Below, one piece after another: positions 2,080 to 57,546 of a stretch of 64,000 bases of DNA. The translations under genes were made by a program, and so were the position numbers. How positions within the stretch are numbered: position 1 is the stretch's first letter; each line of letters begins with the position of its first letter. The notes under the pieces were generated by a model. It ran no database searches. It was not told the DNA's origin and worked only from the letters and a program-made list of their open reading frames with translations. Location of the stretch: assembly GCF_002854065.1 (NCBI RefSeq), contig NZ_CP024147.1. One strand, given 5' to 3'. Source of the stretch: Escherichia coli. Lineage in GTDB: Bacteria > Pseudomonadota > Gammaproteobacteria > Enterobacterales > Enterobacteriaceae.

Positions 2080-2113
2080 CCGCTCTCATCCATTCGATGA
2101 GAGCGGTTTTTTT
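2080..2113 (+). terminator. Rho-independent terminator after pheP (hairpin ccgctctcatc...gatgagagcgg plus T-run)
   Basis: Inverted repeat followed by 7 T residues, read directly, between convergent pheP and ybdG. Confidence 0.6.
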
Positions 2114-3411: not shown

Positions 3412-3470
3412 TTATGCAAATCAGGAGAATCTGAGGGGAAATAGCCGGGCAGATGCCCGGCAAGAGAGAA

Positions 3471-4124
3471 TTACACTTCGGTTAAGGTGATGTTTTGCGG
3501 CAGACGAGATTTCGGCAGCGTAGCGTTAAAATCTTCAACGCTGTGATGACCTACCGGAACAACCACCAGACTGGTGTAGCCTTTCTCTTTCAGACCAAAT
3601 TCTGCATCGAGGATGGCGGCGTCAAAACCTTCGATGGGTACCGCGTCCAGACCCAGAGCCGCCACGCCGAGCAGGAAGTTACCGACGTTGAGATAAACCT
3701 GTTTTGCCATCCACTCTGCATCATCATGCAGATCTTTACGGTGCATATCAGCGAAGAACTTGCGACCTTTATCGTTCGCGGCTTTCGCTTCCGGCGTGGC
3801 AAAGCGGCCATCGGCATCTTCCTGGTCAACAACCAGCTTCAGCCAGGCATCGTCCATCGCGGTTTTTGCACAGAACACCACGACGTGCGAGGCATCAAGC
3901 ATTTTACGCTCGTTGAACACGTAATTACCGGCAGCGGATTTGGCAACACGCGCTTTACCTTCTTCCGTGCTGGCAACAATAAAATGCCACGGCTGGGAGT
4001 TGGTGCTGGACGGGCTGTATTGCAGTAGCGTTTTGATCTGCTCGGCCTGTTCCGGGGTAAGTTTTTTGCTGGCATCAAATGCCTTAGTGGAATGACGCTT
4101 TAAGGCGACAGAAATGATATCCAT
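3471..4124 (-). CDS. nfsB: Oxygen-insensitive NAD(P)H nitroreductase NfsB
   Basis: Track ORF 3471..4175; recalled NfsB (217 aa) starts [17 protein letters not shown]. Confidence 0.9.
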
Positions 4125-11791: not shown

Positions 11792-12010
11792 ATGGCATTC
11801 AGTAATCCCTTCGATGATCCGCAGGGAGCGTTTTACATTTTGCGCAATGCGCAGGGGCAATTCAGTCTGTGGCCGCAACAATGCGCCTTACCGGCAGGCT
11901 GGGACATTGTGTGTCAGCCGCAGTCACAAGAGTCCTGCCAGCAGTGGCTTGAAGCCCACTGGCGTACTCTGACACCGGCGAATTTCACCCAGTTGCAGGA
12001 GGCACAATGA
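11792..12010 (+). CDS. ybdZ: MbtH-like protein YbdZ (enterobactin synthesis accessory protein)
   Basis: MAFSNPFDDPQGAFYILRNAQGQFSLWP... begins at the ATG at 11792 inside track ORF 11786..12010; 4-nt overlap with the entF start. Confidence 0.9.
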   Translation: MAFSNPFDDPQGAFYILRNAQGQFSLWPQQCALPAGWDIVCQPQSQESCQQWLEAHWRTLTPANFTQLQEAQ

Positions 12011-15000
12011 GCCAGCATTTACCTTTGGTCGCCGCACAGCCCGGCATCTGGATGGCAGAAAAACTGTCGGATTTACCCTCCGCCTGGAGCGTGGCGCATT
12101 ACGTTGACTTAACCGGAGAGGTTGATGCGCCATTACTGGCCCGCGCGGTGGTTGCCGGATTAGCGCAAGCAGATACGTTGCGGATGCGTTTTACGGAAGA
12201 TAACGGCGAAGTCTGGCAATGGGTCGATGATGCGCTGATATTCGAACTGCCAGAAATTATCGACCTGCGAACCAATATTGATCCGCACGGTACTGCGCAG
12301 GCATTAATGCAGGCGGATTTGCAACAAGATTTGCGCGTCGATAGCGGTAAACCACTGGTCTTCCATCAGCTGATACAGGTGGCGGATAACCGCTGGTACT
12401 GGTATCAGCGTTATCACCATTTGCTGGTCGATGGCTTCAGTTTCCCGGCCATTACCCGCCAGATCGCCAATATTTACTGTACATGGCTGCGTGGCGAACC
12501 AACGCCTGCTTCGCCGTTTACGCCTTTCGCTGATGTAGTGGAAGAGTACCGGCAATACCGCGAAAGCGAAGCCTGGCAGCGTGATGCGGCATTCTGGGTA
12601 GAACAGCGTCGCCAACTGCCACCGCCCGCGTCACTTTCTCCGGCACCTTTACCGGGGCGTAGCGCCTCGGCAGATATTCTGCGCCTGAAACTGGAATTTA
12701 CCGACGGGGAATTCCGCCAGCTGGCTATGCAATTTTCAGGTGAGCAGCGTACCGATTTAGCTCTTGCGCTGGCGGCTTTGTGGCTGGGGCGATTGTGCAA
12801 TCGCATGGACTACGCTGCCGGATTTATCTTTATGCGTCGACTGGGGTCGGCGGCGCTGACGGCTACCGGACCTGTGCTCAACGTTTTGCCGTTGGGTATT
12901 CACATTGCGGCACAAGAAACGCTGCCGGAACTGGCAACCCGACTGGCGGCTCAACTGAAAAAAATGCGTCGCCATCAACGTTACGATGCCGAACAAATTG
13001 TCCGTGACAGCGGGCGAGCGGCAGGTGATGAACCGCTGTTTGGTCCGGTACTCAATATCAAGGTATTTGATTACCAACTGGATATTCCTGATGTTGAGGC
13101 GCAAACCCATACCCTGGCAACCGGGCCGGTTAATGACCTTGAACTGGCCCTGTTCCCGGATGAACACGGTGATTTGAGTATTGAGATCCTCGCCAATAAA
13201 CAGCGTTACGCTGAGCCAACGTTAATCCAGCATGCTGAACGCCTGAAAATGCTGATCGCCCAATTCGCCGCGGATCCGGCGCTGTTGTGCGGCGATGTCG
13301 ATATTATGCTGCCAGGTGAGTATGCGCAGCTGGCGCAGATCAACGCCACTCAGGTTGAGATTCCAGAAACCACGCTTAGCGCGCTGGTGGCAGAACAAGC
13401 GGCAAAAACACCGGATGCTCCGGCGCTGGCAGATGCGCGTTACCAGTTCAGCTATCGGGAAATGCGCGAGCAGGTGGTGGCGCTGGCGAATCTGCTGCGT
13501 GAGCACGGCGTTAAACCAGGGGACAGCGTGGCGGTGGCATTACCGCGCTCGGTCTTTTTGACCCTGGCGCTACATGCGATTGTTGAAGCCGGTGCGGCCT
13601 GGTTACCGCTGGATACGGGGTATCCGGACGATCGCCTGAAAATGATGCTGGAAGATGCGCGTCCGTCGCTGTTAATCACCACCGACGATCAACTGCCGCG
13701 CTTTGCCGATGTTCCAGATTTAACCAACCTTTGCTATAACGCCCCGCTTACACCGCAGGGCAGTGCGCCGCTGCAATTTTCACAACCGCATCACACGGCT
13801 TATATCATCTTTACCTCTGGCTCCACCGGCAGGCCGAAAGGGGTAATGGTCGGGCAGACGGCTATCGTCAACCGCCTGCTGTGGATGCAAAACCACTACC
13901 CGCTTACAGGCGAAGATGTCGTTGCCCAAAAAACGCCGTGCAGTTTTGATGTCTCGGTGTGGGAGTTTTTCTGGCCGTTTATTGCCGGGGCTAAACTGGT
14001 GATGGCTGAACCGGAAGCGCACCGCGACCCGCTCGCTATGCAGCAATTCTTTGCCGAATATGGCGTAACGACCACGCACTTTGTGCCGTCGATGCTGGCG
14101 GCATTTGTTGCATCGCTGACGCCCGAAACCGCTCGCCAGAGTTGCGCGACGTTGAAACAGGTTTTCTGTAGTGGTGAGGCCTTACCGGCTGATTTATGCC
14201 GCGAATGGCAACAGTTAACCAGCGTGCCGTTGCATAATCTGTATGGTCCAACGGAAGCGGCGGTGGATGTGAGCTGGTATCCGGCTTTTGGCGAGGAACT
14301 GGCACAGGTGCGCGGCAGCAGTGTGCCGATTGGTTATCCGGTGTGGAATACGGGCCTGCGCATTCTCGATGCGATGATGCATCCGGTGCCGCCGGGTGTG
14401 GCGGGAGATCTCTATCTCACCGGTATTCAACTGGCGCAGGGGTATCTTGGACGACCCGATCTGACCGCCAGCCGTTTTATTGCCGATCCTTTTGCCCCAG
14501 GTGAACGGATGTATCGTACCGGAGACGTTGCCCGCTGGCTGGATAACGGCGCGGTGGAGTACCTCGGGCGCAGTGACGATCAGCTAAAAATTCGCGGGCA
14601 GCGTATCGAACTGGGCGAAATCGATCGCGTGATGCAGGCGCTGCCGGATGTCGAACAAGCCGTTACCCACGCCTGTGTGATTAACCAGGCGGCAGCCACC
14701 GGTGGTGATGCGCGTCAGTTGGTGGGCTATCTGGTGTCGCAATCAGGTCTGCCGTTGGATACCAGCGCATTACAGGCACAGCTTCGCGAAACATTGCCGC
14801 CGCATATGGTGCCGGTCGTTCTGCTGCAACTGCCGCAGTTGCCACTTAGCGCCAACGGCAAGCTGGATCGCAAAGCCTTACCGTTGCCTGAACTTAAGGC
14901 ACAAACGCCGGGGCGTGCGCCGAAAGCGGGCAGTGAAACGATTATCGCTGCGGCATTCGCGTCGTTGCTGGGTTGTGACGTGCAGGATGCCGATGCTGAT

Positions 15001-15888
15001 TTCTTCGCGCTTGGCGGTCATTCGCTACTGGCAATGAAACTGGCAGCGCAGTTAAGTCGACAGTTTGCTCGTCAGGTAACGCCGGGGCAGGTGATGGTCG
15101 CGTCAACTGTCGCCAAACTGGCAACGATTATTGATGGTGAAGAGGACAGCGCCCGGCGCATGGGATTCGAAACCATTCTGCCGTTGCGTGAAGGTAATGG
15201 CCCGACGCTGTTTTGTTTCCACCCGGCATCCGGTTTTGCCTGGCAGTTCAGCGTGCTCTCGCGTTATCTCGATCCACTATGGTCGATTATCGGCATTCAG
15301 TCGCCGCGCCCTCATGGCCCCATGCAGACAGCGACGAACCTGGATGAAGTCTGCGAAGCGCATCTGGCAACGTTACTTGAACAACAACCGCACGGCCCTT
15401 ATTACCTGCTGGGGTATTCCCTTGGCGGTACGCTGGCGCAGGGCATTGCGGCGCGACTACGTGCCCGTGGCGAACAGGTGGCATTTCTTGGCTTGCTGGA
15501 TACCTGGCCGCCAGAAACGCAAAACTGGCAGGAAAAAGAAGCTAATGGTCTGGACCCGGAAGTGCTGGCGGAGATTAACCGCGAGCGCGAGGCCTTCCTG
15601 GCGGCACAGCAGGGAAGTACTTCAACGGAGTTGTTTACCACCATTGAAGGCAACTACGCTGATGCTGTGCGCCTGCTGACGACTGCTCATAGCGTACCGT
15701 TTGACGGTAAAGCGACGTTGTTTGTTGCTGAACGCACGCTTCAGGGAGGTATGAGTCCTGAACGCGCCTGGTCGCCGTGGATTGCGGAGCTGGATATCTA
15801 TCGTCAGGATTGTGCGCATGTGGATATTATCTCTCCAGGGGCATTTGAAAAAATTGGGCCGATTATTCGCGCAACGCTAAACAGATAA
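12007..15888 (+). CDS. entF: Enterobactin non-ribosomal peptide synthetase EntF (condensation, adenylation, carrier and thioesterase domains)
   Basis: 1293-aa ORF with NRPS adenylation motifs (FTSGSTGRPKGV, YRTGD) and a GGHSL carrier-domain serine motif. Confidence 0.95.
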   Translation: MSQHLPLVAAQPGIWMAEKLSDLPSAWSVAHYVDLTGEVDAPLLARAVVAGLAQADTLRMRFTEDNGEVWQWVDDALIFELPEIIDLRTNIDPHGTAQALMQADLQQDLRVDSGKPLVFHQLIQVADNRWYWYQRYHHLLVDGFSFPAITRQIANIYCTWLRGEPTPASPFTPFADVVEEYRQYRESEAWQRDAAFWVEQRRQLPPPASLSPAPLPGRSASADILRLKLEFTDGEFRQLAMQFSGEQRTDLALALAALWLGRLCNRMDYAAGFIFMRRLGSAALTATGPVLNVLPLGIHIAAQETLPELATRLAAQLKKMRRHQRYDAEQIVRDSGRAAGDEPLFGPVLNIKVFDYQLDIPDVEAQTHTLATGPVNDLELALFPDEHGDLSIEILANKQRYAEPTLIQHAERLKMLIAQFAADPALLCGDVDIMLPGEYAQLAQINATQVEIPETTLSALVAEQAAKTPDAPALADARYQFSYREMREQVVALANLLREHGVKPGDSVAVALPRSVFLTLALHAIVEAGAAWLPLDTGYPDDRLKMMLEDARPSLLITTDDQLPRFADVPDLTNLCYNAPLTPQGSAPLQFSQPHHTAYIIFTSGSTGRPKGVMVGQTAIVNRLLWMQNHYPLTGEDVVAQKTPCSFDVSVWEFFWPFIAGAKLVMAEPEAHRDPLAMQQFFAEYGVTTTHFVPSMLAAFVASLTPETARQSCATLKQVFCSGEALPADLCREWQQLTSVPLHNLYGPTEAAVDVSWYPAFGEELAQVRGSSVPIGYPVWNTGLRILDAMMHPVPPGVAGDLYLTGIQLAQGYLGRPDLTASRFIADPFAPGERMYRTGDVARWLDNGAVEYLGRSDDQLKIRGQRIELGEIDRVMQALPDVEQAVTHACVINQAAATGGDARQLVGYLVSQSGLPLDTSALQAQLRETLPPHMVPVVLLQLPQLPLSANGKLDRKALPLPELKAQTPGRAPKAGSETIIAAAFASLLGCDVQDADADFFALGGHSLLAMKLAAQLSRQFARQVTPGQVMVASTVAKLATIIDGEEDSARRMGFETILPLREGNGPTLFCFHPASGFAWQFSVLSRYLDPLWSIIGIQSPRPHGPMQTATNLDEVCEAHLATLLEQQPHGPYYLLGYSLGGTLAQGIAARLRARGEQVAFLGLLDTWPPETQNWQEKEANGLDPEVLAEINREREAFLAAQQGSTSTELFTTIEGNYADAVRLLTTAHSVPFDGKATLFVAERTLQGGMSPERAWSPWIAELDIYRQDCAHVDIISPGAFEKIGPIIRATLNR

Positions 15889-15903
15889 ATTAACATTATC
15901 TAT

Positions 15904-15936
15904 AAACCCATAATTGCAGGAAATAATTATGGGTTT
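15904..15936 (+). terminator. Perfect 12-bp AT-rich inverted repeat (aaacccataatt-9 nt-aattatgggttt) just after entF; terminator or protein-binding palindrome
   Basis: Read directly; followed by a T-rich tract (atcatttatttaatttat). Confidence 0.4.
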
Positions 15937-16103
15937 ATCATTTATTTAATTTATAAGGTTGCTGGTTATTTTTCTTAAATAGAGTGAATGTTGCATTCAG
16001 TGGAATGAATTTACAAACTTCAGCTTCGGATAATTCTCACCAACTGGTAAAGTGAGCGCCGTGGAGATTTCCCCCTATTGGACTCATTTTCAGGTTATAC
16101 CCC

Positions 16104-17237
16104 ATGTCATCACTGAATATTAAACAGGGAAGTGACGCTCATTTTCCCGATTATCCTCTGGCGTCGCCCAGTAATAATGAAATTGATTTACTTAATCTAA
16201 TCTCAGTTTTATGGCGGGCCAAAAAAACGGTCATGGCGGTCGTTTTTGCGTTTGCCTGTGCAGTCTTGCTGATCTCTTTCATCCTGCCGCAAAAATGGAC
16301 CAGCGCGGCGGTTGTCACGCCTCCAGAACCTGTTCAGTGGCAAGAGTTGGAGAAAACATTCACTAAGCTTCGTGTGCTGGATCTGGATATCAAAATTGAT
16401 CGTACAGAAGCATTTAACCTGTTTATCAAGAAGTTTCAGTCGGTTAGCTTGCTGGAAGAGTACCTGCGTTCATCACCTTATGTGATGGACCAATTAAAAG
16501 AGGCGAAAATCGACGAACTGGATTTGCATCGCGCAATTGTCGCATTGAGCGAAAAAATGAAAGCGGTTGATGACAATGCCAGTAAGAAAAAAGATGAACC
16601 GTCACTGTATACCTCCTGGACGCTAAGTTTTACCGCGCCAACCAGTGAAGAGGCGCAGACCGTTTTGAGCGGGTATATCGATTATATCTCTGCGTTGGTG
16701 GTGAAAGAGTCGATAGAAAACGTCCGTAATAAACTGGAGATCAAAACCCAGTTTGAAAAAGAAAAACTGGCTCAGGACCGCATTAAAATGAAAAATCAAC
16801 TTGATGCAAACATTCAGCGCCTCAATTATTCACTCGACATTGCCAACGCGGCAGGAATTAAAAAGCCCGTTTACAGTAATGGTCAGGCCGTTAAAGATGA
16901 CCCCGATTTCTCTATTTCTCTCGGCGCAGACGGTATTGAACGCAAACTGGAAATTGAAAAAGCGGTCACTGACGTTGCGGAACTGAACGGTGAATTACGT
17001 AATCGTCAGTATCTTGTTGAGCAGTTAACAAAAGCAAATATCAACGATGTGAATTTTACGCCGTTTAAATATCAGTTAAGCCCGTCATTGCCAGTGAAAA
17101 AAGACGGTCCGGGTAAGGCGATTATTGTGATCCTTTCCGCGCTGATCGGCGGGATGGTGGCTTGTGGTAGCGTGTTATTGCGCTATGCGATGGCATCCAG
17201 AAAACAGGATGCCATGATGGCAGACCACTTAGTTTAA
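16104..17237 (+). CDS. fepE: Wzz-family polysaccharide chain-length regulator FepE
   Basis: 377-aa ORF with N- and C-terminal transmembrane segments; matches recalled FepE. Confidence 0.9.
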   Translation: MSSLNIKQGSDAHFPDYPLASPSNNEIDLLNLISVLWRAKKTVMAVVFAFACAVLLISFILPQKWTSAAVVTPPEPVQWQELEKTFTKLRVLDLDIKIDRTEAFNLFIKKFQSVSLLEEYLRSSPYVMDQLKEAKIDELDLHRAIVALSEKMKAVDDNASKKKDEPSLYTSWTLSFTAPTSEEAQTVLSGYIDYISALVVKESIENVRNKLEIKTQFEKEKLAQDRIKMKNQLDANIQRLNYSLDIANAAGIKKPVYSNGQAVKDDPDFSISLGADGIERKLEIEKAVTDVAELNGELRNRQYLVEQLTKANINDVNFTPFKYQLSPSLPVKKDGPGKAIIVILSALIGGMVACGSVLLRYAMASRKQDAMMADHLV

Positions 17238-18049
17238 CTATTTGCGGTTGAAGGTGCCGTTCGTCCGAGCGGCACCACGAGCGGCGTTCCGGCTACCGGA
17301 TCGTCAATGATCATGCAGCGGAGACCATAAATGCGCTCAATCAGTTCAGCAGTGACAATCTCCTTCGGCGCTCCCTGAGCAACAATTTTCCCTTCTCGCA
17401 ATGCAATCAAATGGCTGGCGTAACGACAGGCCTGATTAAGATCGTGCAGCACCGCCGCCAGGGTATAGCCTTTCTCGCGGTTCAGTTCGCTTAACAGTTC
17501 CAGCAAATCAATCTGATGACTGATATCCAGCCAGGTCGTGGGTTCGTCGAGCAGCATAATTGCCGTTTCCTGGGCCAGCACCATCGCGATCCACGCTCGC
17601 TGGCGTTGCCCACCGGAAAGGGTATCCACGCTTTGATCTGCAAGATGAGTTATTCCCGTGGCCTGCATCGCTTTCGTTACCGCCTCTTCATCTTCTTTGC
17701 GCCAACGGGTAAACAGCGGTTGATGCGGATAACGCCCACGCGCCACCAGCTCCTGCACGGTGATATCGCCCGGCGTGGTAGCATTTTGCGCCAACAGACC
17801 AATCCGGCGTGCAACTTCTTTACTGGCGTAATGTTGAATGTGCTCGCCATCCAGCCAGACATGCCCGTGAGTAGGCGTCATCAGGCGGCTTAAGGTACGC
17901 AGCAACGTGGATTTACCGCAGCCATTTGGCCCGATAATTGCCGTGAAGTGACCATCAGGTATTTCTACAGTCAGATTTTCCGCAACGGTATATTTGCCAT
18001 ATCCCAGGGTTAACTGTTCGCCGCGCAAACGGGCTACTGATTCGGTCAT
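17234..18049 (-). CDS. fepC: Ferric enterobactin ABC transporter ATP-binding protein FepC
   Basis: Track ORF 17234..18190; recalled FepC (271 aa) starts MTESVARLRGEQ; Walker A GPNGCGKST and signature LSGGQRQR present. Confidence 0.9.
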   Translation of the reverse strand: MTESVARLRGEQLTLGYGKYTVAENLTVEIPDGHFTAIIGPNGCGKSTLLRTLSRLMTPTHGHVWLDGEHIQHYASKEVARRIGLLAQNATTPGDITVQELVARGRYPHQPLFTRWRKEDEEAVTKAMQATGITHLADQSVDTLSGGQRQRAWIAMVLAQETAIMLLDEPTTWLDISHQIDLLELLSELNREKGYTLAAVLHDLNQACRYASHLIALREGKIVAQGAPKEIVTAELIERIYGLRCMIIDDPVAGTPLVVPLGRTAPSTANS

Positions 18050-19038
18050 TTTTTGCGAGACTCCTGAATTAACAAGACGATAAGGTAAATACCGCCGAGG
18101 CTGACGGTAACGACGCCAACCGGAAGTTGATACGGCATAAACAGTTGTTGGGCGCAGAGATCGGCCGCCAGCAGTAACAACGCCCCGCACAGCGCCGCCT
18201 GGGTTAGCCCCCAGCGAGCGGTGCCGCTAATGCGTCGGGCAATGTGCGGCGCGACTAAAGCAATAAAGGAAATCGGCCCGGCAAGCGCTGTTGCCGCAGC
18301 GGTAAGCACCACTGCAACCAGCATCATTAACAGACGCGAACGTTCGACGCTGACGCCCAGCGCACACGCGGTATCATCGCCCATTTCCAGCAAGCGCATC
18401 CGGCGTACCAGTAAGGCGGCGGCAATTAGCATCAATATAATGATGGGTGCGGAAGGCGAGGTTTTTGCCCACGTCAGGCCGTTGAGCGATCCGGCATTCC
18501 ACAAACCTGCTGTTAGCGCCGTTTCTAAAGACGCTTTCAGCAACAGCCAGGTATTAAAGGCCACCAGCATGGCGCGAACGCCGATACCGATAATAATCAA
18601 CCGAAAGGTGTCGATACCGTTACGCCAGGCGAGCAGCCAGACCAACAGCGAAGTGATAATGCCGCCCACCATTGCTGCCAGCGCGATAGCCGTCAGGTCC
18701 TGACCAAACAGCACCATCGCCACCAGCACGCCGCTCCACGCCCCGGTGTTAAAACCCATTACGTCAGGGCTGCCGAGCGGGTTACGCATCAGCGACTGAA
18801 AAATCGCGCCACTGACGCCCAGTGCTGCGCCAATCAACAGCGCCATCAGCACGCGTGGTAAACGCCATTCGGTGACCACCATCGTCATACTGCGCGGCGC
18901 ATCGCCCATCAGCGCGGCGAATACCTGCGAGGTTTCCAGCGTGACGGCACCGCTGCGTAATCCCCAGATACCTGCAACCACACAGGCGGAAATCAGCAGC
19001 AAACAGGTGATGAGTAATCGGCGAGAGACGTAAATCAT
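18046..19038 (-). CDS. fepG: Ferric enterobactin ABC transporter permease FepG
   Basis: 330-aa polytopic membrane ORF; 4-nt overlap with fepC. Confidence 0.9.
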   Translation of the reverse strand: MIYVSRRLLITCLLLISACVVAGIWGLRSGAVTLETSQVFAALMGDAPRSMTMVVTEWRLPRVLMALLIGAALGVSGAIFQSLMRNPLGSPDVMGFNTGAWSGVLVAMVLFGQDLTAIALAAMVGGIITSLLVWLLAWRNGIDTFRLIIIGIGVRAMLVAFNTWLLLKASLETALTAGLWNAGSLNGLTWAKTSPSAPIIILMLIAAALLVRRMRLLEMGDDTACALGVSVERSRLLMMLVAVVLTAAATALAGPISFIALVAPHIARRISGTARWGLTQAALCGALLLLAADLCAQQLFMPYQLPVGVVTVSLGGIYLIVLLIQESRKK

Positions 19039-20051: not shown

Positions 20052-20076
20052 GATAATGAAATTAATTATCGTTATC
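20052..20076 (+). promoter_or_regulatory. Fur box in the divergent fepD / entS promoter region
   Basis: gataatgaaattaattatcgttatc closely resembles the Fur consensus. Confidence 0.65.
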
Positions 20077-55825: not shown

Positions 55826-55845
55826 GATACGTCAGCAAGAATTCA

Positions 55846-55873
55846 AAACCCGCTTAATCAGCGGGTTTTTTTT
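55846..55873. terminator. Bidirectional rho-independent terminator between convergent cspE and crcB
   Basis: aaacccgcttaatcagcgggttttttttg: hairpin flanked by an A-run and a T-run. Confidence 0.7.
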
Positions 55874-57514: not shown

Positions 57515-57546
57515 CAAAAAACCCGCTTCAAAAAGCGGGTTTTTTA
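57515..57546. terminator. Bidirectional rho-independent terminator between convergent tatE and lipA
   Basis: aaaaaacccgcttcaaaaagcgggttttttat: perfect hairpin flanked by A- and T-runs. Confidence 0.75.

Follow-up and report, generated by a model that had tools for sequence, protein, structure and literature searches.

The spacer between entF and fepE, in the 64,000-nucleotide stretch of Escherichia coli DNA that we analyzed (the window), carries a long hairpin that is most probably a Rho-independent terminator, likely a leaky one, ending the fes–ybdZ–entF transcript before the separately controlled fepE gene. The evidence consists of the hairpin itself, its conservation, its covariation, the strand on which it pairs best, its place relative to published fepE control elements, and the absence of fepE from two lists of genes induced together with entF.

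Results

A long perfect hairpin follows the entF stop codon

In the window, entF occupies positions 12007–15888 of the + strand and ends in a TAA codon at 15886–15888, as placed by the list of open reading frames, the translation, and the RefSeq annotation of matching E. coli genomes. Fourteen nucleotides separate this stop codon from an inverted repeat on the same strand, which consists of a 5′ arm (ATAAACCCATAATT, 15902–15915), a 9-nt loop (GCAGGAAAT, 15916–15924), and a 3′ arm (AATTATGGGTTTAT, 15925–15938) that pair perfectly over 14 bp. A reading of the DNA made from its letters alone (the sequence-only reading) had reported the repeat at 15904–15936; the sequence it gave was exact as written, and perfect pairing reaches further, to arms of 14 nt. 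In RNA folding, G15916 and U15924 can also pair to leave a loop of 7 unpaired nucleotides; the stem is then 14–15 bp long, with a loop of 7–9 nt. The stem is 79% A–U, and its three G–C pairs form the base and directly adjoin a U-rich tract on the + strand (TTTATCATTTATTTAATTT, 15934–15952) that begins within the stem base. G–C pairs at the base of the stem, next to the U-tract, hold the position that matters most for termination. The same sequence-only reading had called an AT-rich stem atypical for a terminator and had described a T-rich tract after the palindrome. The stem is indeed AT-rich, yet its base beside the U-tract is made of three G–C pairs; the tract is present, but it is interrupted in the window allele (GGG TTTATCATTTATTTAATTT). 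A 9-nt complement also flanks the hairpin (15885–15893 and 15946–15954).

Among inverted repeats with loops of at most 12 nt, no perfect repeat in the 64-kb window is longer than this hairpin, and the remaining perfect repeats are at most 13 bp long and GC-rich. By simple arithmetic, the chance expectation for such 14-bp repeats in 64 kb is ~0.003–0.03. The hairpin folds as RNA with a predicted energy of −15.5 kcal/mol, corresponding to z scores against dinucleotide shuffles of −3.5 in a 72-nt context and −4.4 in a 48-nt context, with 0–1 of 200 shuffles folding as well, and a scan for terminator-like patterns flags the site. The RNA fold of the whole spacer was not better than that of shuffles (z = −0.95), and a scan of the spacer against Rfam 15 returned only chance-level matches (E ≥ 6; 15–16 bits compared to gathering scores of 40–90). 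Four open reading frames of 22–30 amino acids overlap the spacer.

The hairpin is conserved where fepE adjoins entF

The 801 bases around the site are 100% identical in strain 100416 and 99% identical in O157:H7, and this stretch was found in 5,415 of 5,426 complete E. coli genomes. We sampled ten alleles evenly down the similarity ranking of the 5,415 genomes. All ten keep the hairpin, and eight vary in the loop and tail only. The other two, from isolate 30859_5#29 and from NCTC9967, have spacers that are otherwise unalignable with that of the window; both retain AAAACCATAATC...GATTATGGTTTT followed by a T-run, and they differ from the window by two compensatory pair changes, C–G to A–U and U–A to C–G. 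In both strains, the divergence spans the 3′ end of entF, the spacer, and fepE, and the FepE protein of NCTC9967 is only 79% identical to that of the window, about as distant as Citrobacter FepE. In approximately 10% of the complete E. coli genomes, the match spans less than 80% of the 801-nt query, suggesting recombination or replacement at the locus. A covariance model finds one hairpin site in the 64-kb window when both strands are read, and blastn places the hairpin at a median of one and a maximum of two sites per genome across 4,888 E. coli genomes. The multiple copies that mark a REP/BIME/ERIC-type or MITE repeat were thus not found.

A scan of species-representative genomes with the 295 C-terminal residues of EntF yielded 80 loci, in each of which we identified the end of entF and the genes that follow it. 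Homologous hairpins were found as 23 distinct sequences from Escherichia, Citrobacter, Salmonella, and Intestinirhabdus; the carriers are Escherichia spp., E. albertii, 11 Citrobacter genomes, Salmonella enterica subspecies arizonae and diarizonae, and Intestinirhabdus. In these 23 homologues, the pairs of the two arms are conserved or covary, and the loop varies between alleles and genera. The hairpin core, CCATAAT/ATTATGG, was found only in loci where entF is followed by fepE, starting 19–43 nt past the entF stop codon and 190–215 nt ahead of the fepE start codon. The CCAT of the core lies 19 nt past the stop codon in typical Escherichia alleles and 32–43 nt past it in the divergent E. coli alleles, Citrobacter, Salmonella, and Intestinirhabdus. 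Loci without fepE (all but one Enterobacter genome, Klebsiella, Kosakonia, Kluyvera, and others) have other GC-rich or REP-like palindromes after entF, and the next recognizable gene in most of them is the convergent fepC. Judged by these comparisons, the hairpin has been conserved for as long as fepE has adjoined entF. Folding energy and conservation in other enterobacteria had been named beforehand as checks on the palindrome, and both came out in its favor, with a stable fold (z = −3.5 to −4.4) and conservation, in 23 sequences, where fepE follows entF.

Citrobacter amalonaticus has fepE and, in the three genomes that we analyzed (L014, L016, and L019), an unrelated GC-rich hairpin in the equivalent place, with folding energies of −18 to −23 kcal/mol. 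A T-run directly follows this hairpin in two of the three genomes, L014 and L019 (for example, GUUACGGGGGAUUUUUUUU), and amounts to a U8 run in L014. The C. amalonaticus hairpins share the position, orientation, and neighboring genes of the window hairpin but have GC-rich stems of unrelated sequence, and are therefore analogues rather than homologues; presumably they represent functional replacement by a textbook terminator. They are found ~20–60 nt past the end of entF; those of L014 and L019 are directly followed by a Fur-box-like sequence containing GATAAT (TGATAATCATC / GCGATAATTCT).

Several other loci had features of their own. Citrobacter sp. MGH106 carries, at 3440–3582 of its locus, a degenerate copy of the AT-rich hairpin with several mismatches 140 nt past entF, with a new, perfectly paired GC-rich hairpin (CCCCAGTCACTTA...TAAGTGACTGGGG) inserted ahead of that copy, an arrangement that could represent terminator turnover in progress. 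Seven Enterobacter loci have nested or tandem GC-rich palindromes in the first 100 nt past entF; the palindrome type in their entF–fepC gap (CCCCTCACCC..CCCTCTCCC...GGGAGAGGG..GGGTGAGGG) looks like a genus-specific family of REP-like repeats. An assembly titled Chryseobacterium sp. 18061 encodes an EntF C-terminus that is 79% identical to that of E. coli, in an enterobacterial context, and is probably mislabelled or contaminated.

Covariation indicates an RNA stem on the entF-sense strand

We built a covariance model from a MAFFT alignment and realigned the 23 distinct + strand sequences to it. The 14-pair helix is paired in 91.5% of alignment cells, compared to 36–52% when the 3′ partners are slid by 1–3 columns, and at six stem pairs both partners have changed (30 cells). 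Covariation scored 0.307 compared to 0.141 for shuffles, and none of 500 shuffles reached that value; since the sequences share ancestry and the alignment behind these counts had been fitted to the structure, this control overstates the significance, and the figures serve as support rather than as a formal probability. Read on the + strand, the stem has 32 G·U/U·G wobble cells and one A·C/C·A cell in the 23 sequences; pairing within the inner 12 pairs is 98.9% complete on the + strand and 90.7% complete on the − strand, and the wobbles, as we read the alignment, originated independently at no fewer than ~8 positions or lineages. A wobble pair leaves the two half-sites different from each other as DNA, and the pattern points to an RNA stem in the entF-sense transcript rather than to a symmetric DNA site for a dimer or to a − strand RNA. 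All 23 homologues have 6–10 U in the 12 nt counted from the last two paired stem positions. A minus-strand terminator was also considered: the − strand folds equally well, but the wobble asymmetry and a poor U-tract (GGGUUUAUAGAUAAUG) speak against it.

A Fur box at the hairpin was considered and rejected, as the best match there was 11/19 to the consensus GATAATGATAATCATTATC, a score of at least 11 being reached at more than 350 positions of the window. Probable Fur boxes near 20052 and 22501 score 15–16/19. Apart from the hairpin, a 13/19 match to the Fur consensus was seen in CAGATAAATTAACATTATC (15882–15900), across the stop codon of entF, probably by chance because 28 window positions score at least 13.

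Two U-tract alleles differ in predicted strength

The U-tract of the window allele is interrupted, with a tail (UUUAUCAUUU) that is broken after three U's, and the same interrupted tail is carried by O157:H7 and by phylogroup B2-like strains. K-12-type alleles have an intact tail (UUUUUUAUUU), in which the tract reads TTTTTTATTTGTTTGATTT; the window allele can be written TTTATCATTT and the K-12 allele TTTTTTATTT. The two substitutions that break the U-run in the window also add two A–U pairs to the stem.

We estimated terminator strength with a discriminant of the d'Aubenton-Carafa type (d'Aubenton-Carafa et al., 1990), applying its formula in approximate form with modern folding energies; its thresholds are approximate as well. 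In its best-scoring configuration, the window allele (UUUAUCAUUUAUUU) had T = 3.8 and d = −9.9, below the approximate threshold because of its U-tract, and the O157:H7 and B2-type alleles likewise had d values of about −10. The K-12-type allele (UUUUUUAUUUGUUU) had T = 5.3 and d = +13.6, and K-12-type alleles with the tail UUUUUUAUUUG ranged from +13.6 to +20 by the approximate formula. For the hairpins of other genera, d was ~ −17 to +11, and the GC-rich hairpins in the window scored −13 to +43 in the same orientation and −13 to +51 in the best orientation. Under this model, the K-12-type allele scores as a normal terminator, within the spread of the same-orientation GC-rich hairpins; it comes close to the window hairpin at 57516 (+19), and the hairpins at 55845 (+33) and 2080 (+43) score higher. 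Given the interrupted U-tract, termination by the window allele is predicted to be partial and weaker than that by K-12-type alleles.

Published fepE control elements lie downstream of the hairpin

The fepE gene, also called wzz(fepE), encodes an O-antigen chain-length regulator and occupies 16104–17237 of the + strand, as placed by the list of open reading frames and the RefSeq annotation of matching genomes. In EHEC EDL933, a fepE promoter–gfp fusion served as a reporter of fepE expression, and an H-NS DNase I footprint (TTTGCTGGTTATT) was found in the fepE promoter region (PMC8669466). Its counterpart in the window (GTTGCTGGTTATT, 15958–15970), placed by homology to this footprint, lies 20 nt downstream of the hairpin; the O157:H7 row of our alignment carries the published sequence. 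DNase I protection and EMSA with point mutants have validated an RcsB box (TCGGATAATTCTGA) ahead of S. Typhimurium fepE; its distance from the ATG is 79 nt, and relative to the transcription start, which SalCom places 43 nt upstream of the ATG in Salmonella, it spans −36 to −22 (PMC7913699). The window counterpart of this box (TCGGATAATTCTCA, 16026–16039, + strand; PMC7913699) is followed on the same strand by a TGnTAnnnT motif (TGGTAAAGT, 16045–16053), the putative extended −10 element of the fepE promoter as judged from conserved columns and from the spacing to the Salmonella start. The block TTCGGATAATTCT.A....CTG.TA...T (16026–16053) is conserved in nearly all of 20 aligned fepE-bearing sequences, including sequences without the AT-rich hairpin. 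Homology to Salmonella would place the start of E. coli fepE transcription near 16061. SdiA represses an E. coli fepE promoter fusion (PMC11619404), and a scan for sigma-70 patterns called no promoter in the entF–fepE spacer. The RcsB box, the putative −10 element, and the homology-placed start lie 90–120 nt downstream of the hairpin. As the published fepE control elements are all downstream of it, the hairpin is expected to be outside the primary fepE transcript and to belong to the tail of the entF message.

Another small palindrome, TGAATG-TTG-CATTCA (15984–15998), is situated between the footprint of H-NS and the RcsB box; typical E. coli alleles keep it, but it is not conserved in E. albertii or the other genera. 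The fepE gene and the spacer (15850–17200) form a low-GC block (36–46% compared to 53–61% in the flanking genes; entF 56–60%, fepC 50–57%), which fits horizontal acquisition and the reported H-NS silencing. On the other side of fepE, its stop codon (17235–17237) overlaps that of the convergent fepC (17234–18190, − strand, given as the longest open reading frame; the annotated gene in relatives is ~0.8 kb), leaving zero intergenic space. A small hairpin in the 3′ end of fepE (~17191–17222) was picked up as a terminator-like pattern on the − strand, possibly one that serves fepC.

fepE is absent from two lists of genes induced with entF

A literature search found no described entF terminator and no small RNA from the entF 3′ UTR. 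The cultures behind two E. coli Term-seq resources were reportedly not iron-limited, and absence of the locus from their tables would, if so, be uninformative. The supplements of these resources (Adams et al., 2021; TERMITe) contained no entry for entF, fepE, ybdZ, or fes and none at the expected coordinates. In ExPEC O78-9 grown in inactivated, iron-limiting serum, the induced genes listed include fes, ybdZ, and entF but not fepE, which appears instead in a separate complement-dependent set (PMC4145685). The iron-starvation response of K-12 MG1655 likewise lists fes, ybdZ, and entF, but not fepE, as induced (PMC6049941). Both induction tables use the operon name fes-ybdZ-entF-fepE (PMC4145685, PMC6049941), which is repeated elsewhere (PMC10763504); because this curated name includes fepE, it assumes some read-through. 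The absence of fepE from the two induced lists is indirect evidence that fits an effective stop in the entF–fepE spacer.

Discussion

The palindrome in the entF–fepE spacer most likely forms a stable stem-loop on the sense strand and lies at the end of a transcription unit, past a stop codon and ahead of the next promoter. From these features, we infer termination at the hairpin, its efficiency, and a protective role for fepDGC. In the mechanism that we propose, RNA polymerase from the Fur-controlled fes promoter would pause on the U-tract, the hairpin would form in the polymerase exit channel, and a fraction of transcripts would be released ~50–60 nt past the entF stop codon. Termination of this kind would keep iron-regulated enterobactin synthesis apart from fepE, which would be served by its own RcsB/H-NS-controlled promoter ~120 nt downstream, and would limit transcription through fepE into the convergent fepDGC. 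Because fepE abuts fepC without a spacer, the end of entF is the only place to stop before fepDGC. Without such a stop, strongly derepressed fes–entF transcription would run head-on into fepDGC, which are needed under the same conditions. In the window allele, the interrupted U-tract would make termination partial, weaker than in K-12-type alleles. The sequence-only reading had offered a weak attenuator between entF and fepE as one possibility, and this part of it fared well, given the compensatory changes, the U-rich tract in all homologues, the place upstream of the fepE promoter, and the sub-threshold score.

Several other explanations of the palindrome deserve consideration. It might be a conditional attenuator, a weak and regulated terminator whose read-through couples fepE, and with it very long O-antigen, to iron starvation, with an efficiency that depends either on which U-tract allele is present or on the distance between the polymerase and the ribosome completing entF behind it. 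Such regulation would accord with the disrupted U-tract and negative d of window-type alleles (O157:H7, B2-like) compared to the positive d of K-12-type alleles, with an Escherichia 5′ arm that begins only 14 nt past the entF stop codon, and with a curated operon name that includes fepE. We consider it quite unlikely, however, as there is no conserved alternative (anti-terminator) pairing and the whole-spacer fold has a z score of only −0.95, the distance from stop codon to core is not conserved (19 nt compared to 32–43 nt), and fepE is not listed as co-induced with entF in two data sets (PMC6049941, PMC4145685). Alternatively, transcription could end elsewhere, at a Rho-dependent or downstream site, with the hairpin acting only to stabilize an RNA 3′ end by blocking 3′ exonucleases and thereby protecting entF mRNA. 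A conserved sense-strand RNA stem that is long and AT-rich, with a poor U-tract in the window allele, would serve this purpose. A pure decay barrier needs no U-rich tract, however, and one adjoins the stem in 23 of 23 homologues; moreover, the C. amalonaticus replacement is a textbook hairpin followed by U8. Stabilization as the sole function thus strikes us as very unlikely.

The sequence-only reading had also proposed that the palindrome is a binding site for a dimeric protein, and a regulator such as Fur, nucleating H-NS, or another protein could in principle control fepE or entF from a DNA site with perfect dyad symmetry in an AT-rich, H-NS-bound spacer, 20 nt from a published footprint. 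This proposal did not hold up. Both arms change bases yet stay complementary, the 32 wobbles compared to one of the opposite kind leave unequal half-sites in many species, the Fur match over the hairpin is only 11/19, the footprinted H-NS and RcsB sites are elsewhere in the spacer, and C. amalonaticus has an unrelated GC-rich hairpin instead, making a dimer site highly improbable. A chance palindrome, or the remnant of a repeated or mobile element, might be expected in AT-rich DNA, which readily forms short palindromes, and in a low-GC block of fepE and spacer that looks horizontally acquired. Such an origin is extremely improbable for what is the longest perfect inverted repeat in the window, present in one copy there and a median of one copy per E. 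coli genome, with covariation across four genera and no Rfam match.

If the hairpin is the terminator that we propose, the operon quoted as fes-ybdZ-entF-fepE is probably two units, an iron-regulated unit that extends to the hairpin and an RcsB/H-NS-regulated fepE unit, which would explain why fepE is missing among the genes induced with entF in two tables. The two U-tract alleles might further act as a genetic rheostat of read-through into fepE, an idea that we regard as unlikely. If it were true, iron starvation of strains with the weak allele would cause fes–entF read-through into fepE and give longer O-antigen during infection, and the same read-through would extend as antisense transcription into fepDGC; in strains with the strong allele, the iron and O-antigen systems would stay insulated from each other.

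The hairpin is otherwise an ordinary terminator, and the allelic difference in predicted strength between pathotypes is its mildly interesting point. It resembles terminators elsewhere in the window (2080–2106, 55845–55869, and 57516–57545) in having a sense-strand stem with a G–C base, a U-rich tract, and a position past a stop codon, and it shares with canonical E. coli Rho-independent terminators an A-rich 5′ flank that pairs with the first U's. It differs from the canonical terminators in its long, 79% A–U stem, its loop of 7–9 nt, and, in the window allele, its broken U-tract and sub-threshold score. Partial terminators such as the rplL–rpoB attenuator or T1 of rpsU–dnaG–rpoD also consist of a hairpin and a U-tract between co-oriented genes, and they let some polymerases through and thereby set unequal expression of the upstream and downstream genes. 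Unlike the downstream genes in those systems, fepE has its own promoter and serves a different physiology, the length of the O-antigen rather than iron.
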